Assembly (NCBI GenBank): GCA_049302075.1
Contig: JBAQLS010000003.1
Span: forward strand, 176,561-240,560
Direction of reading: 5' to 3'
DNA length: 64,000 nucleotides
From: Carboxydocellales bacterium
Lineage (GTDB): Bacteria; Bacillota; GCA-003054495; Carboxydocellales; JAJZTU01
This document shows, piece by piece, positions 2,015-47,522 of the stretch. The notes below the pieces were generated by a model that worked only from the letters and a program-made list of their open reading frames with translations, was not told where the DNA came from and searched no databases. Position numbers and translations under genes: made by a program. How positions within the stretch are numbered: position 1 is the stretch's first letter; the number at the start of each line of letters is the position of its first letter.

Positions 2015-4120
2015 TTATCCGGCAGGTTGATATTCCTCAAAATACTGTTTGATTCCTTCAAAAATGGCCTGGGCAAATTTTTCCCGAATTTCCGCCTTGG
2101 CAAGTAAAGCCTCCTCTTCCCGATAGCTTAAATATGCTGTCTCTACTAGAATTGAAGGCATTGTAGTACCTCGCAACACCGAAAAATTTTCCTGTTTGAT
2201 GCCCAAATCTTTTCTACCAACTGCCTTAATCATCTGGTTTTGTACCGCTTGGGCTAACCTGATACGCTCTGGCCCCTGAGCAGCTAACTCAGGGATACTT
2301 GATGGTGCGTAATAATAAGTGGAGGTACCATTAGTCGTAGAATTTTCCGATGCATTAGCATGGACGCTCACAAAAATATCCGCTTTGTTTTCCAAGGCAA
2401 TGGCAGGTCGTTGCGTCAGGGTAATTTTGGTATCATCAGTGCGAGTATAAATTACCCGGTATCCGGCAGATTCCAGCTTTAGTCCCACCCGCTTGCTAAT
2501 ATCAAAAACAACATCCTTTTCCTGAAGCTTGTTCACACCTAATGCGCCAGGGTCAATCCCACCATGCCCTGGGTCAATAGCTACCGTGTGTATAACTTGG
2601 CTATTTCCCGAATTAGTGCCGTTCTGTCCGGTTTCCGACTGAACATCCCCTACTTTACTTTCAGTGGGGACAATAAGCAGCATTCGCTCATTGTCTCCCG
2701 GCTTGGTAAACCATCTAAATCCTGGTTCTAGCTCCAAATTAACCTGAACCGATGTATTATCTCCCTCAACCGCTCCAGTTGATACTTTAACTAAACCATA
2801 TTGTCCTACAGCTATATCCTGAGCATTTCCGGCCAGCTCGGCATCTCTTATTTTAACCACTAATCGATTAGGTTCCGGTTGTTCATTAACTTCATAAACC
2901 AAAGGTTCGCTGCCTAGGATGGTAATTTTGTTTTGTTCTCCGGTGTCGATACCCATTTCCAGACGGTTGGTCTTGCCAATTAATTTAACCAGCCAACTGG
3001 CAACCCAGCCAACCGAACCATCAATGAGCTTAACTTCCAACCAACTTCCATCCTGGCGCAGAGCCTCAACCCGTGTCCCTTGTGCCAGCTTGGTCACAAC
3101 CGCTGTATCTGAACCGGGACCGGAACGAAAATTTACCGTAGGACTACTTATTCTGGCTGGACAGGGCAACTGAATGGTGTCCGCTGCTGAGCTGTCACCT
3201 GTTGTATTAGTGTTACTGTTACCATTATTTTCGATTTCGGTTTCAGTATTGATTCCATTATTTACATTGCCAGTTTCCGGCTTTGTCTGGGAAGGCGTTG
3301 GCACGGCCTTCTCTTGAGTAGTTACCGCAACCAACCAACTAGCTACCCAAACGGTTTGACCCTTATTTAATTTTACTTGATACCAATCCTTTTCCTGCTT
3401 AATAACCTGAAAAGTCTCTCCCTTTTGGACTTTGCCCAGCAAGGCATAACTTGTGGCAGGTCCACTGCGCAAATTGACATAATCTCCCTTGATGGTAGCC
3501 TGTTCACTCCCGGTAGATTGCTGCTTACTATTTGAATCTGCTTTGCCCTGAGCAACAGCCGGCACGGGTTTACTTTGGGTTACTTCAGTAACCAGCCAAC
3601 CTGCTACCCAGCCCGTTTGACCTTTATTTAATTTTACTTGATACCAATCCTTTTCCTGCTTAATAATCTGAATAGTCTCTCCCTTTTGGACTTTGCCCAC
3701 CAAGGTAAAACTTGTGGAAGGACCACTGCGTACATTAACATAATCTCCTTTAACGCTAAGTACATTAGCAGAGACTTTGGTCGCTTTACTTTGGGTACTT
3801 AGTTTAGGTTGGGAGGATACCTGCTTGCTTTTTTCCGGCGCCGGTTTAACTAGCCACCCAGCTACCCAGCCTTTTTGACCGTTACGAAGCTGTATATAGT
3901 ACCACCCTTGGCTTTGTTTAACTATAGAATAAGTCTCACCTAAATATACTTTACTAATCATTTTAGAACTAATATTTGCACTGGAACGAACATTGACATA
4001 TGTACCGGTAACCACAATTCCCCCTGCTGCGTCGGCCTGAGAAGGTATGGCTGCAACCAGTATGCCCATGATAATCATCAAGATGGTAATTATCGCTTTG
4101 CGATATGATAATTTATTCAT
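2015..4120 (-). CDS. Secreted N-acetylmuramoyl-L-alanine amidase (Amidase_3) with N-terminal SH3b repeats
   Basis: Has a signal peptide and repeated GDYVNVRSGPSTS..GWVAGWLV SH3b-type units. The C-terminal catalytic motifs are VAIDPGHGGIDPGA and FVSVHANA. Confidence 0.85.
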   Translation of the reverse strand: MNKLSYRKAIITILMIIMGILVAAIPSQADAAGGIVVTGTYVNVRSSANISSKMISKVYLGETYSIVKQSQGWYYIQLRNGQKGWVAGWLVKPAPEKSKQVSSQPKLSTQSKATKVSANVLSVKGDYVNVRSGPSTSFTLVGKVQKGETIQIIKQEKDWYQVKLNKGQTGWVAGWLVTEVTQSKPVPAVAQGKADSNSKQQSTGSEQATIKGDYVNLRSGPATSYALLGKVQKGETFQVIKQEKDWYQVKLNKGQTVWVASWLVAVTTQEKAVPTPSQTKPETGNVNNGINTETEIENNGNSNTNTTGDSSAADTIQLPCPARISSPTVNFRSGPGSDTAVVTKLAQGTRVEALRQDGSWLEVKLIDGSVGWVASWLVKLIGKTNRLEMGIDTGEQNKITILGSEPLVYEVNEQPEPNRLVVKIRDAELAGNAQDIAVGQYGLVKVSTGAVEGDNTSVQVNLELEPGFRWFTKPGDNERMLLIVPTESKVGDVQSETGQNGTNSGNSQVIHTVAIDPGHGGIDPGALGVNKLQEKDVVFDISKRVGLKLESAGYRVIYTRTDDTKITLTQRPAIALENKADIFVSVHANASENSTTNGTSTYYYAPSSIPELAAQGPERIRLAQAVQNQMIKAVGRKDLGIKQENFSVLRGTTMPSILVETAYLSYREEEALLAKAEIREKFAQAIFEGIKQYFEEYQPAG
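3330..3753. repeat. Near-identical tandem duplication (about 261 bp period) inside the amidase gene, encoding two SH3b units
   Basis: 3330-3492 and 3592-3753 align almost base for base (ttatttaattttacttgataccaatccttttcctgcttaataa...). More diverged copies lie upstream and downstream. Confidence 0.9.
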
Positions 4121-16039: not shown

Positions 16040-16662
16040 TGTTTTCCCGTCCCTTTATCATCTTTGTATTGGTTTATATTATACAACTATGCTGCTTACT
16101 ATAACAACTTTAACTCCCGGGCCTTGTACACCGCCTGGGTACGGAGCCCGTCTCTTCCATGGTTTGGAATACCTTCATTTAAGGGTGCGCCCCGAACAGT
16201 CAACTCAAAGATAGGGCCTGCCGTACATTACTTTTGAGGATGGAACAGGTCCATCATGGAGGATGTTACTGTGTTGCGTGATTATTGTAGCAACCTATTG
16301 GAAAAACACCGTATTCTTGAACAGCCAGCGGTCGAAGCAGGGGATGAGGACGAGGAAGAATTATAGTAGTGAGCAAGATACGCTACAATTGACAAAAGTT
16401 AATTAGCAATAGGGTCTATATTAAGTTCATGAAGCACAGTCAAATAGTGCTTCTTTTTTTATAATTGTAATTGGTGTTAATAATATAGCCCATATTCGGC
16501 ACCCCTGGGGGTACCTTCAAATGTTTTGATCACCGACAGGTAAAATTGGGTGTTTTGGGAGGAATCCACTCATGCTCCAGTTTTAGTGCTATACAGGTCT
16601 GTTCAAACATGACGGAAGATTTCAACTATAAACTGGACAGGGAATGTTGCCGCATCTTTAAC

Positions 16663-19136
16663 GTTTACATTCCACAATAGTTAGATTTCAACGTGACTAT
16701 GTTAGTATGCGGGTCCTCATACTCAAACCTGTTTACATTCCACAATGGTTAGATTTCAACGAAAAAGCTGAAGAGTATCTAAATACTATTTTTGACCTTT
16801 ACATTCCACAATGGTTAGATTTCAACCCATGCGGGCAGCACGTAGTGTTTAACCTTTACTTTCTTTACATTCCACAATGGTTAGATTTCAACGCCCGTAA
16901 TGCGGGGTAAAGATATACTGCTTACCTTCTTTACATTCCACAATGGTTAGATTTCAACTCCTGCTGAGTGTAGAATATAACACTCAATAAAGGGCTTTAC
17001 ATTCCACAATGGTTAGATTTCAACATATATCGAGATGGCAGATAATGACCGGCTGAACGGCCTTTACATTCCACAATGGTTAGATTTCAACCTAAATCGT
17101 CCTCGTCGAATGGGCGGGGCTTGGTTTCTTTACATTCCACAATGGTTAGATTTCAACAAGGCAGTCACGCCTCATTGACCTGCCCAACTCCCTTTACATT
17201 CCACAATGGTTAGATTTCAACATCGCCATGCGAGATAGGAAATCAAGTGCCGCTACTCACTTTACATTCCACAATGGTTAGATTTCAACCCTCAGTTTTC
17301 GGTCTAAAAACGTTCGCCATAAGTTCTTTACATTCCACAATGGTTAGATTTCAACTGCCTACATGCCCTACCATAAAACCCACATATTTCCTTTACATTC
17401 CACAATGGTTAGATTTCAACTTAACTCCAAGCTACAGTTAGACCTACCCGACAAGCTTTACATTCCACAATGGTTAGATTTCAACACCGCCTAGAGCTTG
17501 GCACGACTATATTTAAGGTGCTTTACATTCCACAATGGTTAGATTTCAACGAAGAAGGAAACGCCAGAAAGATATTGTTTACACTGCTTTACATTCCACA
17601 ATGGTTAGATTTCAACATAACTATTATAGACCATAGACTATCAGTAGATAGGCTTTACATTCCACAATGGTTAGATTTCAACCGGATGGCGGTTGGTTAG
17701 TCGGTGGTATCGTTGCGGCTTTACATTCCACAATGGTTAGATTTCAACCACTAGGCATAGGTATGTTAGTATTAGATATGTGCATCTTTACATTCCACAA
17801 TGGTTAGATTTCAACCTGAGCAGGAGTAACATTGTTTCGCTGAATTTCAATTCTTTACATTCCACAATGGTTAGATTTCAACTACCCCTTGGCATCCGCT
17901 GTATAAGAGGATTATACGCCTTTACATTCCACAATGGTTAGATTTCAACATAACTATTATAGACCATAGACTATCAGTAGATAGGCTTTACATTCCACAA
18001 TGGTTAGATTTCAACTAACTTTTCAGTCGCTGGCTTACTAGGTTTAGTGATCTTTACATTCCACAATGGTTAGATTTCAACATCTCAAAAAGTTGTGATC
18101 ACAACTTTTGTTGGTGTCTTTACATTCCACAATGGTTAGATTTCAACTATTTTTACTTGTATTGCCTCAGCGTCGCTACCCGCCTTTACATTCCACAATG
18201 GTTAGATTTCAACGGTGCAGCCGGTGGAGGCAAGACCGAGGCGTTGCTTCTTTACATTCCACAATGGTTAGATTTCAACGCGACAGGCTAGGGCATTTGT
18301 GGACAAGATGGTTCGCTTTACATTCCACAATGGTTAGATTTCAACTCTCCATCTCCGCACATATCAACTCCAGCACCACAGCCTTTACATTCCACAATGG
18401 TTAGATTTCAACTTTCCAGCGCATTAGGCCAACAGCAATATCCACTACTTTACATTCCACAATGGTTAGATTTCAACACAGCCGCCAAAAATCTCCTAGT
18501 CAATGATTTCGACCTTTACATTCCACAATGGTTAGATTTCAACGAAACAGGATGCCCAGAGATACATATTGCCACAAGGCTTTACATTCCACAATGGTTA
18601 GATTTCAACAAAAATCACAAGTTTTTGTCACAAAGGTATTAAAACTTTACATTCCACAATGGTTAGATTTCAACACCGTTGACCGCACGCTAGATGTACA
18701 AAAGTTACATCTTTACATTCCACAATGGTTAGATTTCAACTAGATGCGGAATGTACTATCACAGAGACAAAAAATGCTTTACATTCCACAATGGTTAGAT
18801 TTCAACCCAGTTAAGATAATTTCCTTGTTATCGCCATTTTTTCTTTACATTCCACAATGGTTAGATTTCAACCACCGCAGGCACTTCGGGGTACATCTGC
18901 CGGACTAGACTTTACATTCCACAATGGTTAGATTTCAACCTACCAGCAACCCCCTCAACGACCTCAACGACCTTACTTTACATTCCACAATGGTTAGATT
19001 TCAACAACAGAAAAAATGTAGTCATTCATAATCATGCCCTCCTTTACATTCCACAATGGTTAGATTTCAACTACCGTTTTTTGAGGTTGCAGCTTTAATT
19101 ATTTTTCTTTACATTCCACAATGGTTAGATTTCAAC
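16663..19136 (-). CRISPR. CRISPR array with 38 repeats of 30 nt and 37 spacers of 34-38 nt
   Basis: The repeat on the plus strand is CTTTACATTCCACAATGGTTAGATTTCAAC. On the minus strand it reads GTTGAAATCTAACCATTGTGGAATGTAAAG, a type I-B-like form. I located every repeat by hand. The two repeats farthest from cas2 (16663, 16731) carry substitutions, so the leader is at the cas2 side. Confidence 0.98.
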
Positions 19137-19324
19137 GCTTCGACCCGAGAAGCGCACCGCCCTAGAATACCTGGGCATATTTCTGTCGTACACAGTATTA
19201 TCATCCCCTTATATTTGATATTATTCTAAAAAAAATACTTATAATCATATTTACTAGCAGTTTGCTCATCTGTCGCACTCCGGGAAAGATTGCATTAGTG
19301 ATAGTCGACAGAGTAATTTTAAGT
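19137..19324 (-). promoter_or_regulatory. CRISPR leader (mostly AT-rich; GC-rich next to the first repeat) between cas2 and the first repeat
   Basis: Inferred from its position between the cas2 stop and the conserved first repeat, and from AT-rich sequence with T/A runs. The promoter itself is not pinned down. Confidence 0.55.
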
Positions 19325-19615
19325 CTAAAAAAAGTTGGAGGTTTTATCATCTTCTTTCCCCCAAAACTCTTTTTGGAGCCAACGTTCTTCCCTGCTTTTA
19401 AATACCAATACAGAGTCTTTATCCGCTCGAATATTCTTGCTTAATTCCATTTGTAACTTTTTCAATAAGGCTGCTGTTATCTCTCCTTCAAAAACTGATT
19501 TTTGAACATGAGTAAGGTATTTTTTGCAAGTTTTAAAAATTCTTCTGGATGCCTTTGCGCCGCCTTCATCCATCTCAATATCATAGACTAATATAATGTA
19601 CATGATCACCACCAA
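19325..19615 (-). CDS. cas2: CRISPR-associated endoribonuclease Cas2
   Basis: 96 aa, MYIILVYDI N-terminal beta strand; overlaps the cas1 stop. Confidence 0.9.
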   Translation of the reverse strand: MVVIMYIILVYDIEMDEGGAKASRRIFKTCKKYLTHVQKSVFEGEITAALLKKLQMELSKNIRADKDSVLVFKSREERWLQKEFWGKEDDKTSNFF

Positions 19616-33712: not shown

Positions 33713-33806
33713 TTGAACTGGGGTGCCAGGTGTAGGTCTGTTTTTGCTGTTCTGTCTGGGTGTGGTTTTAGTGGTCTATGTCTGGGTAGCAGTCCAAGCT
33801 TTGTAA

Positions 33807-34010
33807 CCGGTCGGACACCTGTCCAGGTTTGGAGCTCTTAGTTCCATACCGTGCAGATCTAAGCACAGGTGGTCTAATAAAACCGACCAACCTGGACAAT
33901 ACGGCGTCCATGCCTAGATGTCCAGGTTGGTCAATTCAGTTAGCGAGCTGGAACTTAGAACTGCACGGATAAAGCGCAGAACGCCCACACCGGACAGGTA
34001 CTCTGACCGG
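33807..34010 (+). repeat. Long-hairpin repeat, copy C (same family as 43289-43593 and 46321-46848)
   Basis: Termini are ccggtcggacacctgtcc and ggacaggtactctgaccgg. There is a perfect 14-bp inner stem, gaccaacctggaca/tgtccaggttggtc. It shares gctcttagttccata, ctaataaaa and the loop core CGTCCATG with copy A. Confidence 0.85.
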
Positions 34011-34041
34011 AGATTAATTCTTAGAAAGGAGCAAACAAATA

Positions 34042-36244: not shown

Positions 36245-38293
36245 CTAGAGAAGTTTGGCTTTTTCCACCAGCCGCAGAATCATTACCGCTGCTTCCGCCC
36301 TGGTGGAATTATTGGCCGGGTAGAATTTGCCATCGGGCATACCAGTAATAATACCCTGGGAGATAATCTTACCTAATGGATTTTTGGCCCAGTTACTAAT
36401 TTGGTCATTGTCCTCAAAGGTTAAATCAGCCAGTTCTAACTGGATGTTAAGCTTACTTGCCAGTCTGGCAATCATCGCTCCTGCTTCTTCCCTGCTAATT
36501 AGTTTGTTGGGGCCAAAAGTACCATCCCCATAGCCGAGGATTATACCCTGGGGAGCTAACCGGCTGACAGCATCATAATACCAATCTCCCCGGGCAATAT
36601 CTGAGAAATAAGCCGGCTGATTTACTATGTCTTTCGTCCCAGCCAAGTCATACACTTTGGCTAGGATTGTAGCAAATTCCGCTCTGGTAATTTGGTTATC
36701 CGGTCTAAAGGTCCCATCTGCATAGCCTTGAAGCAGCTTGAGTGCTCCCAGTTTCTCAACTTCCTTTTCCGCCCAATGGTCTTTCATATCAATGAACATT
36801 GATTTAGGTGGTACCACCGTTATACTATCAGAACTTCCAGAACCTCTATACTCAGGTGTTACCACTAACCGGCTGTAAATATATTCAGCTATTGCCGCTA
36901 TACCTTTGTTATAGGTATCATAATTGTGGTCATCTGAATTGATGAAGAGACCTCTGATATTGTTTTGGGCTAAAAACTGTCCAACCTGGTCTTTGTTATA
37001 GACCTCTGAAGTTACCTTTTTATTACGTCCCCAACCAATATAGTCCACACCGTTATTACGCATATATGCAAGAATGGGGCTTAAACTTTCTTGGTTAGCG
37101 AATTCCGGTACACCATCATCATCCACATAGACGATGAACCTCTTGGTATTTTCCGTCCAGGTTTGCTGCTCAATAACTTCTTGGAAAGACAAGGTCCGGG
37201 TGGTTTGCATAGTTAGATTTTTAAAGGTGAAATAACTTAAATCGCTACAATAGTGATTTGCATAACTAACCAGTGGTCCAAAGCCTCCGGCTCCCGTATC
37301 CTCGATAGTGATATTTGAATCGGCCCCAGTGGTGTCATAAATCACCTGACCATCTTCATAGAATTTCAAGGAGTTTTTGGAAAGCTGAACCTTAATATTC
37401 TTCACTTCGTTAGTTGTTGTTTCAGTTGACTCTGTTGTTTCTGTTGTATCACCGCTTAGGGAATCTTTTGTGGCAACCCAAGTAATCCCCGGTATTTCCA
37501 AATCGGAAATACCATAACTCTCCTCATCATGAAAAGTGTCAGCATCCACGTTGTTTAACCTGTATAAAGTTATTTTGTTTTTTCCTGAGTACGGATATTC
37601 GTAAAGTATTAGATAACCGTTTATTTTATTTTCTATTATACTGGTATTGAAGAGGAAACCTGCCCCTTCTAAGGTGTGTTTATCAATCTTACTATCATCG
37701 ATGGAAAATTGAATGGTTTTATCCCCGGTGTTTTGGTCCGGGTAAAGCATAAAATCCTTGTATGCAGGTACACTATACCCTAAAAAGACAATATCGTTGT
37801 CTTTTGGATAAATGTGTTTAGACCTATTATTACAGTAATTTAAGGAATCATCTGCAGAACTAACATCGGTAAAATATTTGCTTTCATCCTGGGGATCATC
37901 CTCCTGATAATAAAAATAGGGCTGATTGTAAACTGAATGATAAACTGTCTGATCAACTGACCATTTCTCCGGCTGATCGCAATTAGTAGGATAGTCTGGA
38001 TGATAGTAATGATCATAAATGTTCCAGTTAAAACTATTCTTGGAGTCTACAACTGTACTTCCCGCTCTGGTGATTTTGATTCTATCCTTGGGAATGCCGT
38101 AGACCTCATATACTGCGGTTTGCACATCATAAGCGAAACTAGATACATCCAGATCACTTGAACCGACAGCAATAGTCACTTCGATATTTTGATTGCTAAG
38201 GGTGGCTGCGAAAACAGTTTGGAGCGGACCGGCAAAGGCTAGAAGAAATACCAATAAAAGTGGCATCCCTCTTTTGATTAAATTGTTCTTCAA
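36245..38293 (-). CDS. Secreted cell-wall-anchored protein with three C-terminal SLH domains; N-terminal about 480 aa of unknown function
   Basis: Signal peptide and a Thr/Glu-rich linker. There are three SLH repeats (F.D....W........G...G..DG.F.P....TR.E.A). Probable TTG start at 38293 behind GAGGAGGA. Confidence 0.8.
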   Translation of the reverse strand: MKNNLIKRGMPLLLVFLLAFAGPLQTVFAATLSNQNIEVTIAVGSSDLDVSSFAYDVQTAVYEVYGIPKDRIKITRAGSTVVDSKNSFNWNIYDHYYHPDYPTNCDQPEKWSVDQTVYHSVYNQPYFYYQEDDPQDESKYFTDVSSADDSLNYCNNRSKHIYPKDNDIVFLGYSVPAYKDFMLYPDQNTGDKTIQFSIDDSKIDKHTLEGAGFLFNTSIIENKINGYLILYEYPYSGKNKITLYRLNNVDADTFHDEESYGISDLEIPGITWVATKDSLSGDTTETTESTETTTNEVKNIKVQLSKNSLKFYEDGQVIYDTTGADSNITIEDTGAGGFGPLVSYANHYCSDLSYFTFKNLTMQTTRTLSFQEVIEQQTWTENTKRFIVYVDDDGVPEFANQESLSPILAYMRNNGVDYIGWGRNKKVTSEVYNKDQVGQFLAQNNIRGLFINSDDHNYDTYNKGIAAIAEYIYSRLVVTPEYRGSGSSDSITVVPPKSMFIDMKDHWAEKEVEKLGALKLLQGYADGTFRPDNQITRAEFATILAKVYDLAGTKDIVNQPAYFSDIARGDWYYDAVSRLAPQGIILGYGDGTFGPNKLISREEAGAMIARLASKLNIQLELADLTFEDNDQISNWAKNPLGKIISQGIITGMPDGKFYPANNSTRAEAAVMILRLVEKAKLL

Positions 38294-39444: not shown

Positions 39445-40650
39445 TTACTTCAGGGACAGTATGTGTCCCAGTTTTTTCTTCTTAGTACTTAAGTAAAACT
39501 CGTTACTCTCACAAGGTTGGATTTCCAAAGGAACCCGTTCCACAATCTCCAGACTATAACCCTCTAACCCCCGAACCTTTTTAGGGTTATTGGTTAACAA
39601 CCGGATTTTCTTCAAGCCTAAGTCCGCCAGAATCTGGGCTCCAATTCCGTAATCCCTCAGGTCAGCGGCAAACCCCAGAGCTTCATTAGCCTCCACTGTA
39701 TCTGCCCCTTCTTCCTGCAGCTTATACGCTTTGATTTTATTTTTTAGGCCGATACCCCGACCTTCCTGACGCATGTACAAAAGTACCCCGGTGCCTTCTT
39801 TTTCAATCTGGCGCATGGCAGCAGCTAACTGGTCTCCACAGTCACACCGCCCTGACCGGAAAACATCTCCAGTCAAGCACTCGGAATGTACCCTTACTAA
39901 CACACTTTCCTTAGTCTTCAGGTCACCCTTGTGCACTGCTAAATGAGTCTGACCGTCCAAAACACTTTCATAAGCAGTAGCCTGAAACTCCCCGTACTCA
40001 GTAGGTAACTTGATAGTCTCCACCCGCTGAACCAACTTTTCATTTCTACGGCGGTATTGAATCAGGTCAGCGATGGTGACAATTTTTAAATTGTGTTTCT
40101 TGGCAAATTCCAATAATTCGGGAACCCTAGCCATTGTTCCGTCTTCTTTCATAATCTCGCAGATTACCCCAGCTGGTGCCAGACCTGCTAACCGGGCAAA
40201 GTCCACTGCAGCTTCGGTATGTCCAGCCCTACGGAGCACCCCGCCCTCTTTTGCTCGCAGCGGAAAAACGTGTCCCGGACGGCGTAAATCCCCAGACTTG
40301 GTAGCCGGGTTAAGAACTGCCTGAATAGTATCTGCTCGTTCATGGGCAGAAATCCCGGTAGTGGTTGACTTATAGTCAATAGAAATGGTAAAAGCAGTCC
40401 CATGGGGGTCAGTGTTGTCCACAACCATCGGAGGCAGGTCTAAGCTGACCGCCCTTGCCCCCTCAATGGGCAGACAAATCAAGCCCCGGCCATGAACGGC
40501 CATAAAATTAACAGCCTCCGGAGTGGCTTTTTCCGCCGCCATAATTAAATCGCCTTCATTCTCCCTGTCCTCATCATCTACCACAACTAGCATCTTGCCA
40601 TCCCGAATATCAGCGATAGCTTCTAAAATAGTGTTGAATTTCATTGTCAA
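39445..40650 (-). CDS. ribBA: Bifunctional 3,4-dihydroxy-2-butanone-4-phosphate synthase / GTP cyclohydrolase II
   Basis: 401 aa with DRENEGDL and [12 protein letters not shown] motifs. Confidence 0.95.
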
Positions 40651-42535: not shown

Positions 42536-42776
42536 AAAAACCCTGGAAGATAATTCCTCCAGGGCATAGGTCAGCAGAAAAACGCCAAACACAGCAAAAA
42601 CATTGCTGTACGTTGTTCCTTCTCCCATCCAGACTTTAACTGTCGGCTTCGGAATTGCTGAGCCTATTGCTAAGCTCTCGCTCACCGAATCTGCCCTTGC
42701 GGGCTTGCGGGCTCGGCTGTTGACCAATGGTCTGCAGCCTTACCGCCGGTACGGAATTACACCCGTCCCTGAAGGA
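42536..42776 (-). promoter_or_regulatory. FMN riboswitch (RFN element) with terminator, controlling ribDE(BA)H
   Basis: The minus strand reads tccttcagggacgggtgtaattccgtaccggcggtaa...gattcggtga...ccgaagccgacagttaaagtctggatgggagaagga, with P1 tccttc/gaagga (aptamer 42617-42776). The terminator hairpin ccctggag..ttccaggg plus T-run lies at 42536-42566. Confidence 0.9.
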
Positions 42777-42957
42777 TTTATATTTATAAGTTAATTATGG
42801 ATAATTATAAACTAGGACAATAGTAATTGTCAAATGAAAGCCATGCAAAGAAATTGGGCATTTGGCGGAGCACCCTCAAGCTTTAAATACCATATGTTAA
42901 ACTACACAGAAGTCTGTGCTTAAAAAAAAATACTGTGGATAACAGGAGGAACTAATT

Positions 42958-43248
42958 ATGTGGCGACAAATGTACGGTGATATGAACCCAACGTCTGGGA
43001 TGAGTGGTGCACAAGGTGGAATGTCCATGATGGGCGGTTCTATGAACCCCATGATGCATGGAGGAATGTGTATGCCTCCCATGCACCACATGATGCCCAT
43101 GCATTGCATGAAGCCCATGCACCATATGATGCATCCAATGATGTGCTGTATGCCCATGATGCATCCAATGATGATGCATAAACCCATGATGCATCCAATG
43201 ATGTGCTGCCTGATGATGTGCTGCAAACCCATGAAGCATCATTGTTGA
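42958..43248 (+). CDS. Small hypothetical protein of extreme Met/His/Cys/Pro composition (candidate metal-binding or spore-associated protein)
   Basis: 96 aa with AGGAGG 8 nt upstream of the ATG. My count of the given translation is 35 Met, 12 His, 12 Pro and 9 Cys. It contains PMMHPMM(CC) repeats. No signal peptide or TM segment. Confidence 0.6.
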   Translation: MWRQMYGDMNPTSGMSGAQGGMSMMGGSMNPMMHGGMCMPPMHHMMPMHCMKPMHHMMHPMMCCMPMMHPMMMHKPMMHPMMCCLMMCCKPMKHHC

Positions 43249-43288
43249 GTACTGAAACTCCGGTCAGCCTTTGTAGGTTACTGAGCCT

Positions 43289-43593
43289 CCGGTCGGATCC
43301 ATGTTTCATTTGGGGTCATTATGACCGGTCGGATACCTATTCCGGCAAGGCGCTCTTAGTTCCATACTCTAGTAGCTCTAAAGCTCTGCATACTAATAAA
43401 AGCACCCTAAACCTCGCCGATTCATCGTCCATGATTCAGCGGCGAGGCGGCCACTGTCATAAGGGTGGCCGGGGTGCTTTTATTGCATGCCGAGCTTAAG
43501 TGCTGCTACGGTACTCCACCATGAGCGCCTTCACCGGAACAGGTATCCGACCTGGTATTATGCATGTCTACGGGGAACAGGTATCCGACCTGG
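43289..43593 (+). repeat. Long-hairpin repeat, copy A (left boundary of the 43.3-46.85 kb cassette)
   Basis: Two nested pairs of termini: ccggtcggatcc (43289) pairs with ggtatccgacctgg (43593), and ccggtcggatacctattccgg (43325) pairs with ccggaacaggtatccgacctgg (43555). The three-way core at 43398-43481 has two hairpins, CCTCGCCG/CGGCGAGG and GGCCAC/GTGGCC, closed by AAAGCACCC/GGGGTGCTTT. Confidence 0.85.
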
Positions 43594-43667
43594 GTCAGCA
43601 CCCGGGGGTCTTAGGTGCGGGCTGGGAGTGGCTGTGTAGACAGGGGCATGACCCCAGAGGACCTAAG

Positions 43668-43753
43668 CGCCGGGGACCGGAATCGAACCGGTACGGGCGA
43701 TGAAGCCCGCAGGATTTTAAGTCCTTTGCGTCTGCCAGTCTCCTGCAAACCGC
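43668..43753 (-). pseudogene. tRNA-Leu(UAA) remnant; 3' about 73 nt intact, 5' acceptor/D-stem strand replaced
   Basis: The minus strand reads ..gactggcagacgcaaaggaCTTAAAAtcctgcgggcttcatcgcccgtaccggTTCGATTccggtccccggcg. It has the anticodon loop, a long variable arm, the T-arm and the 3' acceptor strand. The 13 nt where the 5' strand should be (gcggtttgcagga) cannot pair with ccccggc. Confidence 0.7.
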
Positions 43754-43897
43754 TAATAATAAGGGTTTACCCTTCGTGTATGTATTTAAGATTACAGGAT
43801 TTGAAAACGTCTGAATGTGATTTAGTGATAATCCTGTATGGTAAAAATATCAAAGTCTGTAGGAATAAGCGACAGAACAATAGTTATGTATTCGTTC

Positions 43898-44329
43898 CTA
43901 TGAAGGTTGACTGTTTAATATTCTGCTTTTTACATCTACAACTTCAGATAGAATTAAATTCTTTAGTAACGCATGACGTTCTTTTAAAAACTCCACAAAT
44001 TCATTATCATATTCACCATTAATTAGCTTATCTGAATTTGGAATTAATTGTGATTCCATAGAATGCATCTAAATCAAATGACTCTTTCAGAGCGATGTTT
44101 TCCATGAGCTTACAGTCGTCAACAATAACATCATTGGTTGAACCAGTCATACCCCCACCGTATCGATTGTTAAGAAGTGAGCCCCAAAACCAAAACTTGA
44201 ATAGTTTTCTTGTCTTTGCGTTCTTTGACTAAAATCTTTAGAAGGCAAATGCTTAAGAAAATGCATCATTGGGATAAACATAGTCTTGTAGGGTAACCAT
44301 TTAATACTTATCAATAATTTTTCAGACAT
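43898..44329 (-). pseudogene. Frameshifted remnant of a larger gene (three collinear reading-frame pieces)
   Basis: Manual translation of the minus strand gives three pieces. They are MSEKLLISIKWLPYKTMFIPMMHFLKHLPSKDF.., then (frame shift) FWGSLLNNRYGGGMTGSTNDVIVDDCKLMENIALKESFDLDAFYG.., then (frame shift) DKLINGEYDNEFVEFLKERHALLKNLILSEVVD... There is no RBS or intact frame. The family assignment (possibly DUF262-type C-terminal region) is only a recollection. Confidence 0.5.
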
Positions 44330-44462
44330 TAAAAACTTATAAGTTTTAGCACTGCTGAAATATCTTAATACTTACATATGAACAAATAAAAAAGAGGAGG
44401 AAAATACCCCCTCTATGTATAACCATAAAATTCAACCTTACGCCTCAAAAAGCCAATAGTTC

Positions 44463-45467
44463 CTATTTAAGCTCATTTGCATATACATAAGAAATAATCT
44501 CTCTATAAGGAGTCTCAATCCACCCTTTTTCTTCATGTGAAAACTCTGAGATTTCGCTCGCATTATAATGTCCGTACCTTTGCTTCACTTGTTCCAAAAC
44601 CGCCATTTCCTCTGCAGTAAAAATATCCGGGTCAAATTCTGCTAAGGGTTGAATTATATCGCCAGAATGTACATAAACTTGAGATGGATTAAGGGTTATA
44701 TATCCCAATTTCTCTAAATGCCATAACAGTCCTTCAAAATCTTGTGGAACAGGTCCGTAATCCAACTTAATATATTTCAATCCAGTTACAGAAATCGTAA
44801 AGTCTTTGAAGAAACTGAAGTCAGTATAAAATAAAAGCTTATTTAACTTTGTTTTCCATAAGTCATTCACATTTTGTGCGAAATATAGAACAGTGTTGAG
44901 AACCTTTTGAAAATCTATTTGTTTGAATCCAGATTCAATATTTATAAATGAATACTCAAGCTTTCTTTGTAAAAGATATACGAAGCTATCCTCTTCCTTT
45001 TCTTCAATTATGGACTCTATTTTAGCCATCGCTTTTTTGTAAGTGGAACTTGGTATCAAATTTTTCGCCTCAACTAAAAAATCCTTCATTATTTCAGGGT
45101 TTTGCAACAATTTTAGCAATCTATGATGAGCTTCATTTGGAATTGCACCAGTTTCATATCTATGAATTGTAATTGCTCCCCACCCTAAAACTTTACCAAG
45201 TGTCCTTTGCGACAATCCATATCTTTCTCTAATTTCACCGATGTCTTTAGGCGACATATAAGAATGGCGTTTTCTATATTCATCATATGCTTGTTCTAAA
45301 TTCTCCTCCTCCAAAGCCATATCTAACAACTCATTTCCACAAAGGCAAACCCGAATAGTCGATTCGACTTCAATATCTTCCCCCCTAACCGTAATTACCT
45401 CGTTCTTCTTAAGAATTGTGCTTTCTTTCTCTCCGCACTTTTCGCATACTATAGTATTTGCCATCAT
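44463..45467 (-). CDS. Tripartite antitoxin candidate: MqsA-like zinc ribbon + XRE-type HTH + C-terminal Panacea (DUF4065/SocA-like) domain
   Basis: CxxC...CxC zinc ribbon (CEKCGE..VCLCGN). The HTH segment is YGLSQRTLGKVLGWGAITIHRYETG. The C-terminal KLNKLLFYTDF....G......YGPVP pattern is typical of DUF4065. Strong RBS AGGAGGAGG. Confidence 0.7.
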   Translation of the reverse strand: MMANTIVCEKCGEKESTILKKNEVITVRGEDIEVESTIRVCLCGNELLDMALEEENLEQAYDEYRKRHSYMSPKDIGEIRERYGLSQRTLGKVLGWGAITIHRYETGAIPNEAHHRLLKLLQNPEIMKDFLVEAKNLIPSSTYKKAMAKIESIIEEKEEDSFVYLLQRKLEYSFINIESGFKQIDFQKVLNTVLYFAQNVNDLWKTKLNKLLFYTDFSFFKDFTISVTGLKYIKLDYGPVPQDFEGLLWHLEKLGYITLNPSQVYVHSGDIIQPLAEFDPDIFTAEEMAVLEQVKQRYGHYNASEISEFSHEEKGWIETPYREIISYVYANELK

Positions 45468-45501
45468 GCGAATCCTCCTCCTAACTTAAACCTCCTGAAT
45501 T

Positions 45502-45867
45502 CTATTTGTATGGATAATGGTTAGGTCTCTCTGCAATGTGAAATGATATGCACACGCAAAAGTCCCCACCACTGTTATCCTCTATCTTTATTTTTATCTG
45601 GAACTCATAACCATCAATATTAAAACCAAACAAGAAATAGTCTCCTGGTGGAAATCTTGTGTCACGCTCTGCTTCCGGCCCGCACAAATAATCCTTGTAG
45701 GTTAGACCAAGTATATATTCCTTAATATGACTTGGTTTTAAACCTACCCTTGACAACGAAGCTATATTCTTTTTTCTTTCCTCAAACCTAAATTGTTCCT
45801 GAGTAAAAGCTTGTTTTATCCTTAACAGGAAGCCATTAATTTCACCAATGGGTATCTTGTTTCCCAT
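45502..45867 (-). CDS. MqsR-like toxin candidate (121 aa from the ATG at 45867)
   Basis: The pattern LTYKDYLCGPEAE...GDYFLFG....G.EFQIKIKI......CVCISFH resembles the MqsR family pattern as I recall it. The GAGGTGA RBS sits before the internal ATG. The toxin-first gene order matches mqsR-mqsA. Confidence 0.6.
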   Translation of the reverse strand: MGNKIPIGEINGFLLRIKQAFTQEQFRFEERKKNIASLSRVGLKPSHIKEYILGLTYKDYLCGPEAERDTRFPPGDYFLFGFNIDGYEFQIKIKIEDNSGGDFCVCISFHIAERPNHYPYK

Positions 45868-45898
45868 GCAATCACCTCGCTTTGGTATTCCTATTTTC

Positions 45899-45948
45899 AT
45901 TATATACCATAACAAGGCAATATGAAAGCTATTTGTTATCATATGATA
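45899..45948 (-). promoter_or_regulatory. Candidate promoter and operator of the toxin-antitoxin operon
   Basis: The minus strand has TTTCAT-N17-TATAAT (-10 at 45899-45904). A perfect 12-bp palindrome TATCATATGATA lies at 45937-45948, just upstream. Confidence 0.4.
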
Positions 45949-46320
45949 GCATATTTTTGCCCTTTTTATACATGAGTTTTACAATTAAGTTCAAATGGGT
46001 TTATCTATTTATTCTCATATTACGGGGATAATATCTATTCCAATTGCTGAACATGTGTTCTGATAATGAGATGAAACCTCTACTTGTTCATACGGTGTTA
46101 TTGGATTCCGCTCTGTTAAAAAACTACCCCCATGCATTAATGCCTTTCAAGGAAAAGCAGATTTAGTAATACTGCCCCACCTATAATCTCTTAATGCCCG
46201 GCTTAGGACTACCAAAAGGTAAAGATTTTAACAGACCACAATATTAAATAATCAAATATGCATTGCGTAAAAACAAATTCCAAGGTTCACAGTTAGCGAA
46301 AGCCTTGGAATGCTTATGTT

Positions 46321-46848
46321 TGTAAGCCGGTGTCGGATAAGGTACACCTAGCTCGGTTCGGGTGAAAGTTATTTAGCCCACAAGCCAGTAATGTGGCTTG
46401 GTGGGCTTATCAGCTAATCCGGGTATACCTGTCCGGCCCAAGTCAAGTGCCGGCCTATGTCAAAGCTGTACCGTTCAGCTCAAGGCTGATTACTGGTCTT
46501 CCGACTCAAGTAACCTGCTTGCAGCTGTCGGCCAGGCTGAATGCAGCCCTTACTACCAGGTCGGGTGCCAGTGCCGGTTAAGGTACACATGGCTTCGTGC
46601 CATAGTAGCTGTTAGTGAAAGTGGGCAATAGAAAGCACCCCGGCCACCAAGGATGGTGGCCGCCTCGCCGCTGAGACAAGGACGTCGATCACCACAAGGG
46701 TACCCCGTATCCGTACGTCGTTGTACTCCTACGGCTACGTCGTCGGCGAGGTTTAGGGTGCTTTCTATTAGCCCACTAAACTTACAGCTACTAAGGTAGA
46801 TAGCTAAGTGTACCGGACCGGCACTGGCACCCGACCGGTCATAAAGAC
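46321..46848 (-). repeat. Long-hairpin repeat, copy B (inverted relative to copy A) plus adjacent partial copies
   Basis: A roughly 287-nt hairpin at 46555-46841 has arms accaggtcgggtgccagtgccgg and ccggcactggcacccgaccggtc. Its core at 46632-46766 has the same two stems as copy A in reverse-complement orientation. 46321-46547 holds further terminus-like motifs (ccggtgtcggataagg, ccgggtatacctgtccgg). Confidence 0.85.
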
Positions 46849-46868
46849 CACAAATTAAGCCTAGATAG

Positions 46869-47522
46869 TTACCGGCAGACCTCACGCAGGGCTCGGACAG
46901 CCCCCCCGATATCCGGCGCATTAAAAATCGCTGACCCAGCAACCAGAATATTAGCCCCGGCCTGGCAGATTTCCTTAGCGTTTTCCGAGTTTACCCCGCC
47001 ATCCACCTGGATATCAAAGTTAAGTCCCCGTGCTTCCCGCATACTGCGCAGTGCTTCCAGCTTAGGGATTATCTGGCGGATAAACTTTTGGCCGCCAAAG
47101 CCGGGGTTAACACTCATTAATAACACCATATCCACCTCATTCAGGATATACTCCAAAGTGGTCAGGGAGGTTGCCGGGTTTAGCGCTACTGCGCACTTTA
47201 TTCCTAGCTCCCGGATATTCTGGATGGTCCGATGCAGGTGGGGACAGGTTTCTACATGCACACAAAGCAGGTCAGCACCGGCTTTGGCAAAATCCATAAG
47301 ATAGCGATCAGGCTGTTCAATCATTAAATGGACATCAAAAACCAGCTTGCTTTTTTCCCGTAAAGCCGCTACTACTAATGGACCGATTGTTATGTTAGGC
47401 ACAAAATGCCCGTCCATCACATCAATATGCAAATACTCCGCTCCGGCTTGTTCAACTTGGGAGATGCTGGCTGCCAAGCTGCTAAAATCTGCGGATAATA
47501 TGGAGGGGGCCAGCTTAATCAT
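46869..47522 (-). CDS. rpe: Ribulose-phosphate 3-epimerase
   Basis: 217 aa with canonical APSILSADF...HIDVMDG.FVPN sequence. Confidence 0.95.
   Translation of the reverse strand: MIKLAPSILSADFSSLAASISQVEQAGAEYLHIDVMDGHFVPNITIGPLVVAALREKSKLVFDVHLMIEQPDRYLMDFAKAGADLLCVHVETCPHLHRTIQNIRELGIKCAVALNPATSLTTLEYILNEVDMVLLMSVNPGFGGQKFIRQIIPKLEALRSMREARGLNFDIQVDGGVNSENAKEICQAGANILVAGSAIFNAPDIGGAVRALREVCR

Follow-up and report, generated by a model that had tools for sequence, protein, structure and literature searches.

The DNA analysed here is a 64,000-nt stretch of a Carboxydocellales genome (the window). It contains three diverged copies of an inverted repeat, A, B and C, whose stems persist while their sequences turn over. 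The locus raises the question of what is being kept: a single-strand fold, a repeat that moves, or both.

Structure and covariation of the rods

A repeat search combined with a profile search of the 64 kb gave exactly three copies plus one 20-nt end fragment (Table 1). The copies form rods of ~215-295 nt without coding content; A and B are tipped by a three-way junction and C keeps a single apical hairpin. Intact copies are rods of ~240-295 nt with a P1 of ~75 bp, and the junction with this long P1 is predicted in A, in B and in three intact copies (L2a, L2b and L3) from a related MAG. The full A rod has a minimum free energy of -144.7 kcal/mol and a z-score of -14.4 against 200 shuffles; the shuffle comparison for its 95-nt core gives z = -6.6.

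Table 1. Coordinates of the repeat copies and their parts in the 64-kb window.
Feature	Position	Strand	Remarks
Copy A, full rod	43318..43560	-	~75-bp P1 closing the three-way junction; folded (AYGGAY) strand is minus
Apex of A	43392..43486	-	Closing helix AAAGCACCC/GGGUGCUUU and two hairpins; includes 43398-43481
Hairpin 1 of A	43412..43447	-	CCUCGCCG / 20-nt loop / CGGCGAGG; AUGGAC at 43427-43432 is the AYGGAY motif
Hairpin 2 of A	43449..43470	-	GGCCAC / loop CCUUAUGACA / GUGGCC; loop without GGA
Duplicate of A terminal segment GGAACAGGTATCCGACCTGG	43574..43593		Exact, 20 nt; other copy at 43536-43555
Copy B, full rod	46552..46845	+	Folded strand is plus; back to back with A, 3 kb away
Apex of B	46625..46772	+	
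Hairpin 2 of B	46642-46661	+	GGCCACC / AAGGAU / GGUGGCC
Hairpin 1 of B	46663-46751	+	CCUCGCCG...CGGCGAGG; 73-nt loop (53-nt expansion) holding AAGGAC
B outer flank	46846..46871	+	Part of the inserted DNA; outside the rod
Copy C	33800..34015	-	Best read as a degenerate chimera; between the LigD ligase and LigD primase-polymerase genes

The strings quoted in the preliminary description for A (the reverse complement of 43398-43481) and for B (46632-46766) are present as written. The two copies share, as it stated, the closing helix AAAGCACCC/GGGTGCTTT, the hairpin GGCCAC(C)/(G)GTGGCC and the hairpin CCTCGCCG/CGGCGAGG, and the last of these hairpins has a 20-nt loop in A and a 73-nt loop in B. The arms do lengthen the pairing, to 243 nt in A and 294 nt in B. 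The 20-nt duplicate beside A is either a 38-nt tandem duplication or a remnant of an element end. Just outside the A rod, plus-strand positions 43250-43322 hold another two CTCCGGTC(A/G)G motifs, and from each of them it is 29-36 nt to the following motif of this type. These motifs resemble the terminal ACCGGTCGG of the element and may be remnants of another decayed copy or subterminal repeats.

Copy C does carry the perfect 14-bp stem that had been reported for it, GACCAACCTGGACA/TGTCCAGGTTGGTC around the loop GGCGTCCATGCC. This stem had been called unrelated to those of A and B, which proved incorrect: it is the homologous closing-helix and hairpin-1 stem, with ACC-AACCTGGACA in C corresponding to ACC-AACCTCGACG in L2a. 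C is composed of one arm, hairpin 1 (minus-strand loop GGCAUGGACGCC) and the same arm type in reverse complement, without hairpin 2. Because both arms are of the same type, the closing helix is mismatched and a 95%-identical relative (L004) has two back-to-back copies at this site, C is best read from its sequence as a back-to-back pair that lost its centre and left a chimera of two copies. Such a central deletion would account for both the perfect 14-bp stem and the absence of hairpin 2.

Covariation was measured on an alignment of the five intact copies (A, B, L2a, L2b and L3) from two genomes. RNAalifold predicted 92 pairs in this alignment, and 94.6% of the cells are standard pairs. Both sides had changed in 35 of the 92 pairs, a count drawn from few sequences for such statistics; the shuffle mean was 13.6 and none of the 500 shuffles reached 35. 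When the partners were slid by 1-3 columns as a control, at most 6 pairs were double-changed. The double changes are spread over the outer stem (17/54), the inner stem (10/20), hairpin 2 (3/7) and hairpin 1 (4/9), and the hairpin 1 stem is 100% paired across the alignment. Covariation is strong in all helices, and therefore the claim of a conserved fold holds and covers the whole rod. The preliminary description had placed the conserved pairing in the core; the core does covary, but its limits were drawn too narrowly, since the outer stem covaries as well.

The strand that folds was examined with the union of pairs predicted independently for each strand in the five copies. On the AYGGAY strand, which is the minus strand in A and the plus strand in B, 24 cells were G.U versus 9 that were A.C, and 14 cells were G.A/A.G versus 4 that were C.U/U.C. 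An invariant G.U pair lies beside an A/A mismatch (alignment columns 47/264) in 5/5 copies. The excess of G.U and G.A points to the AYGGAY strand as the folded one; this bias is suggestive rather than proof because the cells are not independent events. RNA and ssDNA are not distinguished by it. A covariance model of the apex (R1) scored 79-103 bits on the AYGGAY strand, whereas its matches on the opposite strand stayed at or below 35 bits or were missing at E<=1. Its scores in the window were 87.6 bits for A on the minus strand (no reverse-strand match at E<=1), 78.7 bits for B and 39.9 bits for C on the minus strand versus 19.4 on the plus strand, which places C on the minus strand. Pairing that is kept despite sequence turnover had been taken as the signature of a functional fold. 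The covariation of every helix, together with the G.U/G.A strand bias, bears out selection on a single-strand fold, RNA or ssDNA.

Relationship to the TwoAYGGAY family

The preliminary description could not match the fold to the signatures of RNase P, SRP, tmRNA, 6S, T-box or hammerhead RNAs. The fold is already catalogued: read on the opposite strand, the loop core CGTCCATG, which that description had correctly singled out, becomes CAUGGACG, the AYGGAY loop behind the name of the Rfam family TwoAYGGAY (RF01731). GGA is present in the hairpin-1 loop of every copy seen. The RF01731 model, whose gathering threshold is 43 bits, scored 51 bits on L2a and 48 bits on L2b at model positions 1-168, on the same strand as the fold. 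These alignments span both hairpins (AUGGAC, ACGGAC or AGGAC loops) and include the inner P1 with its conserved CUCUUA.../...UAAGAG motifs. An Rfam scan of the window, at the gathering threshold and at E<=10 and including short stretches, returned no RF01731 match on A, B or C. The window copies are nevertheless homologues of a model-positive copy, because nhmmer with L2a as the single query matched A (E 3e-28), C (1.5e-19) and B (1.8e-17) over nearly their full length on the same strand.

Weinberg et al. 2010 (PMC2864571) described TwoAYGGAY as a three-stem junction in which two terminal loops carry AYGGAY and P1 is in many cases very large; it occurs in Clostridia, gamma-proteobacteria and the human gut, and its original alignment includes Psychromonas ingrahamii (NC_008709.1). 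Their verdict was 'probably RNA, not cis-regulatory', and the motif was not flagged as repetitive or transposon-associated. Gardner and Eldai 2015 (PMC4333381) noted that both loops fit the CsrA-binding motif and hypothesised that these are CsrA-binding sRNAs in Clostridia; Bacillaceae-1 (RF01690) is their second hypothetical candidate for CsrA sequestration. A literature search found no paper tying TwoAYGGAY to mobility or to experiments.

The element shares with the published family the junction with two hairpins, the long closing P1, the inner P1 motifs CUCUUA.../...UAAGAG, hosts among Clostridia-type Bacillota and independence of particular genes. A and B both have the three-stem junction with a very long P1. 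They differ in a P1 that extends ~40 bp past the Rfam model and in their loops. A has AUGGAC in hairpin 1 only, and its hairpin 2 loop is CCUUAUGACA, a variant that recurs in L3. B has AAGGAU and AAGGAC, with R and not Y at position 2, the latter in its 73-nt loop. C has a single hairpin with AUGGAC, and L2b has ACGGAC twice. The family as published is not flagged as repetitive, whereas here sites are empty in related genomes. Because the window copies fall below the model threshold and lack two AYGGAY loops, they are filed as a variant and not as plain members. On sequence grounds, the conserved core first noticed in A is the three-way-junction tip of a divergent TwoAYGGAY-class element.

Distribution, insertion sites and neighbouring genes

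A 21-base fixed-spacing pattern from the left arm was found in one genome among 185,579 species representatives, the MAG 'Bacillota bacterium SKS3.bin89', at loci L001-L003. This MAG is a relative with ~81% rpe identity. The left-arm pattern had no match in metagenome and viral contigs, and a right-arm pattern had 11 matches in metagenomes, all of them attributable to chance by nhmmer, including one at a coding-like locus (L034). Plasmid and phage sequences gave no blastn match to A. The copy number is 3 in the 64-kb window and ~5 were found in the MAG, where L002 holds the pair L2a/L2b, 68 nt apart. The arms of A are 76-78% identical to those of L2a and L3 and 64% identical to those of B. The arms of A are thus nearer to L2a and L3 than to B, and therefore the subfamilies either predate the split of the genomes or moved between them. 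Three back-to-back pairs were identified on the AYGGAY strand: A/B, L2a/L2b and C1/C2 of L004. The Logan contigs of this 95% relative break off inside the copies.

Comparison with related genomes revealed filled and empty sites. At the site of C, the spacer between the ligase and primase-polymerase genes is 329 nt in the window versus 32 nt and 47 nt in two relatives (83% and 74% primase-polymerase identity, respectively) in which it is repeat-free. Around A and B, five related assemblies keep the order prkC-rsgA-rpe-deacetylase-FMN riboswitch-rib and are copy-free across this syntenic region. In place of the deacetylase gene the window has B, a 146-aa ORF, a SocA/MqsA-type antitoxin gene, a tRNA-like fragment, A and a His-rich ORF. 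Homology between rpe and its counterparts in relatives extends as far as ...TGCCGG; the final codon is missing, and the B flank, the 26 nt outside the rod, supplies the TAA stop. About 19 nt of this flank resemble the A flank (TTAATTTGTGGTCTTTATG vs TTCATTTGGGGTCATTATG). At the murI site of L003 the insertion of ~325 nt comprises the rod plus ~50 nt per side, and the site is empty in relatives with 96% and 88% murI identity. Presence/absence polymorphism, a criterion for MITEs, was therefore found at the sites of C, A/B and L003, and absence from relatives could in principle reflect loss instead of gain.

Besides the rod itself, the filled sites contain ~30-50 nt on either flank that the empty sites lack, with no clear target duplication. 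In a search for target-site duplications A was flanked on both sides by ATTATG, and B, L003, L2a and L2b had no matching flanks. Within the inserted segment of L003, beside the copy, positions 3936-3990 (minus strand) consist of three to four tandem units of ~12 nt (TGTGTAAGTCTT), and the equivalent empty site of the 96% relative has one TGTGTAATCC.

The copies occupy unrelated intergenic places in either orientation. Their neighbours are Ku/LigD, the rib operon and rpe in the window, and NrfD and cytochromes, transketolase and murI, and PGI in the MAG. A protein gene such as a transposase or nuclease had been proposed as a possible companion; when the neighbours were checked across the window and MAG loci they were unrelated, and no protein was common to the copies. 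A promoter scan found nothing promoter-like adjoining A or B. The sole terminator-like matches fall on the non-AYGGAY strand, where hairpin 2 precedes the T-rich closing helix, and no copy is followed by a T-run on the AYGGAY strand. No transposase, RAYT or other mobilising gene was detected in the 64-kb window or in ~200 kb of related DNA, and a Pfam scan of the 28 window ORFs gave no RAYT (Y1 HUH transposase). No full-length IS with the same ends was found; nhmmer and R1 matched only the copies listed here in the window and the related loci (~197 kb for R1). The preliminary description had set a functional fold against an origin of the copies as the ends of a known IS or MITE. That origin is partly borne out: sites are empty in related genomes and a conserved promoter or terminator is absent, but no known IS or transposase was linked to the copies. 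Repeat-like behaviour of this kind is compatible with a selected fold.

Several known element types were considered and rejected. A transposase, reverse transcriptase, nuclease or Ro/Rtc partner encoded next to the copies does not fit, the neighbours being unrelated housekeeping genes. Retron msr-msd, integron attC, IS200/IS605 ends, the IS110 bridge RNA and the TnpB/IscB omega RNA were dismissed for the absence of the required adjacent gene and for misfit in size. The copies are chromosomal and dispersed, which argues against a plasmid single-strand replication origin. A tRNA-like sequence near A (43668-43747, minus strand) scores 32.6 bits as tRNA-Sec (threshold 47) and is not called by ARAGORN. 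Its anticodon loop is CUUAAAA, and it has a long variable arm and a good T arm, with a defective D arm and 5' acceptor strand. It was rejected as a real tRNA-Sec and identified as a defective tRNA-Leu(UAA)-like 3' fragment, probably the attachment-site remnant of an integrated element.

Other features of the window were recorded alongside. The segment that stands in for the histone-deacetylase-family gene between rpe and the FMN riboswitch of the five related assemblies spans ~4 kb (~42840-46871). It encodes the SocA/Panacea and MqsA-type antitoxin (44463-45467, minus strand) and, upstream of this gene, the 146-aa ORF (45502-45942, minus strand), which has no Pfam match and is possibly the toxin partner. 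Positions 42952-43242, just upstream of the rib operon leader, are of low complexity, with tandem repeats at a start-to-start spacing of 30-75 nt; a minus frame would encode a very His-rich protein of ~96 aa (MMLHGFAAHHQAAHHWMHH...) and a plus frame is Met/His/Pro-rich. A perfect sigma-70 consensus (TTGACA, 18 nt, TATAAT) lies at 42804-42833 on the minus strand. Just after it is a full-length FMN riboswitch (42613-42780, minus strand, 86 bits), which heads ribD-ribE-ribBA-ribH. Sub-threshold matches to Vibrio RNA AS9 (39 and 33 bits; threshold 50) fall inside ribBA in the window (40449-40547, plus strand) and in L004 (4234-4332, plus strand) and most likely reflect conserved coding sequence. 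A 682-aa S-layer homology domain protein is encoded at 36245-38293 (minus strand) between a DAO-like gene and ribH; L004 lacks it, and the two flanking genes are adjacent there. The ~3.5 kb at 16040-19600 have no ORF of 130 aa or more and contain some twenty small plus-strand ORFs (43-98 aa), with flanking genes that are all on the minus strand.

Competing explanations and implications for the family

The explanation we favour, with evenly balanced confidence, is a non-coding hairpin element that is apparently mobile, is selected for its single-strand fold and possibly acts as an RNA that displays GGA loops. With its short flanks the element would measure ~300-330 bp and would be a small non-autonomous repeat that spreads within this Carboxydocellales lineage by means of a factor encoded at another locus, in the way that RAYTs serve REPINs. 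The target of selection would be the single-strand fold of the AYGGAY strand. Read-through transcription of this strand would yield a putative long hairpin RNA, which may offer one or two junction GGA loops to a protein; the hypothetical partner put forward in the literature is CsrA. Counted for mobility are the empty related sites, the shortening of rpe by one codon at the B flank, the back-to-back pairs and the contig breaks. Counted against it are the low copy number, the lack of a clear target duplication and the lack of a mobilising gene in the DNA examined. The age of the copies within one genome, seen in the 64% identity of the A and B arms, fits long-lived functional paralogues and a mobile population equally.

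Correia/NEMIS, ERIC, RUP and bcr1 are small non-coding intergenic repeats that form long hairpins once transcribed, vary among strains and can fuse to gene ends. Their ends are defined inverted repeats that correspond to those of an IS, their insertions are bordered by target duplications (TA or TTTAT, for example), and their copies are usually near-identical. The window element is likewise small, dispersed, non-coding and variable in presence, and it sits at a gene end in the case of rpe. It differs from these MITEs in that its copies are strongly diverged and have covarying apical hairpins of their own, and neither a target duplication nor a parent IS was found.

REPINs offer a second comparison. 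They are mobilised by RAYT transposases and show compensatory changes across the REPIN hairpin (Bertels and Rainey 2011, PMC3116915). Like the window element they are non-coding intergenic hairpin repeats that persist in a lineage with compensatory pairing, which here is seen as the 35 double-changed pairs out of 92. They also rely on a factor encoded elsewhere, as the window element would. Unlike it, they are ~100 nt long and consist of two short inverted REP sequences and a spacer, whereas in the window rod an uninterrupted but imperfect helix of ~75 bp leads to a junction with two further hairpins. REPINs have no three-way junction or GGA loops, reach tens to hundreds of copies and are known mainly from Proteobacteria. 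As a tentative extension, somewhat doubtful in our estimate, TwoAYGGAY may be, in place of a set of conventional sRNA genes, a long-lived population of mobile hairpins, a Bacillota counterpart of REPINs, whose two GGA/GTCC loops on the junction dock a dedicated trans-acting protein and whose fold is kept by selection on docking. Docking could involve an RNA-binding regulator, CsrA for example, or else a domesticated transposase that works on ssDNA.

The copies might instead be a family of trans-acting sRNA genes, duplicated and kept by the host, in which expressed copies use two A(N)GGAY loops to titrate a CsrA dimer or another protein. We consider this rather unlikely, although the verdict of 'probably RNA', the hairpin-1 GGA of all copies seen, a strand bias compatible with RNA and the retention of pairing in each of the diverged copies of one genome all agree with it. 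CsrB/RsmY/RsmZ sRNAs also present GGA in hairpin loops, and the two sites of the window element, ~25-30 nt apart, could fit one CsrA dimer. Those sRNAs, however, combine numerous GGA sites with a regulated promoter and a terminator of their own, and each comes from a single-copy gene in Gammaproteobacteria; the window element showed none of these traits. The window element has one or two GGA loops versus the many of CsrB/Rsm sponges, hairpin 2 of A and of L3 has none, the promoter is not conserved and the AYGGAY strand lacks a terminator. Orientation is arbitrary, with C antisense within the ligD operon and B abutting and truncating rpe. Long near-perfect RNA duplexes are RNase III substrates, and the near-perfect runs of up to ~20 bp within the ~75-bp P1 would be expected to be cleaved as such. 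The presence/absence pattern and the chimeric or fragmentary copies also resemble the dynamics of repeats rather than genes. A cis-acting mRNA element gained by insertion, which would serve as a processing, stability or termination signal in the neighbouring operons, is improbable. Correia and ERIC repeats have been shown to act in these ways, the rpe stop is 24 nt away from B, C separates two ligD genes and the L003 copy has convergent genes on its two sides; in addition, hairpin 2 followed by GGGGUGCUUUU scores as terminator-like on the other strand. Such a signal is difficult to reconcile with inconsistent orientation to the host transcript and functionally unrelated neighbouring genes, and the conserved loops and junction exceed the needs of a stability hairpin.

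Two further explanations concern the DNA itself. A and B could mark, in inverted orientation, where a single larger mobile unit (the 4-kb island) terminates on either side, with pairs of the L2a/L2b type as derivatives without cargo. They are inverted with an identical junction core and bracket the antitoxin-like gene, its partner and the tRNA-Leu-like 3' fragment; B falls exactly at the synteny break, and the same back-to-back layout recurs in 3/3 pairs seen. We give this only a slim chance, because A is ~450 nt inside the other boundary of the island, solo copies occur (L003), the interval from A to B is free of recombinase and transposase genes, and the arms of A and B are only 64% identical. 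Least probable is a neutral palindrome, in which template-switch (quasipalindrome) correction of the arms maintains the pairing without a selected function. The two arms of a long inverted repeat can be made alike by intramolecular template switching, and double changes all along the rod would be consistent with this process. It does not explain why the same asymmetric internal loops, such as the invariant G.U by the A/A mismatch, recur in all copies of both genomes, why the two short apical hairpins covary independently, why G.U and G.A are biased to one strand or why conservation of the loop motif reaches the Rfam family.

TwoAYGGAY has been an orphan Rfam family since 2010, and the sole published idea for its function is the hypothesis of a CsrA sponge in Clostridia. 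The RF01731 model overlooks the divergent members found here. To the description of the family this locus adds the strand that probably folds, a P1 that reaches ~75 bp and an instance in which one of the GGA loops can be dispensed with or can give way to a conserved CCUUAUGAC loop. It also adds, for at least one lineage, empty related sites, truncation of a gene end, back-to-back pairs and assembly breaks. If this repeat behaviour generalises, work on TwoAYGGAY would need to treat it as a mobile element that has a protein partner and not as an sRNA gene.
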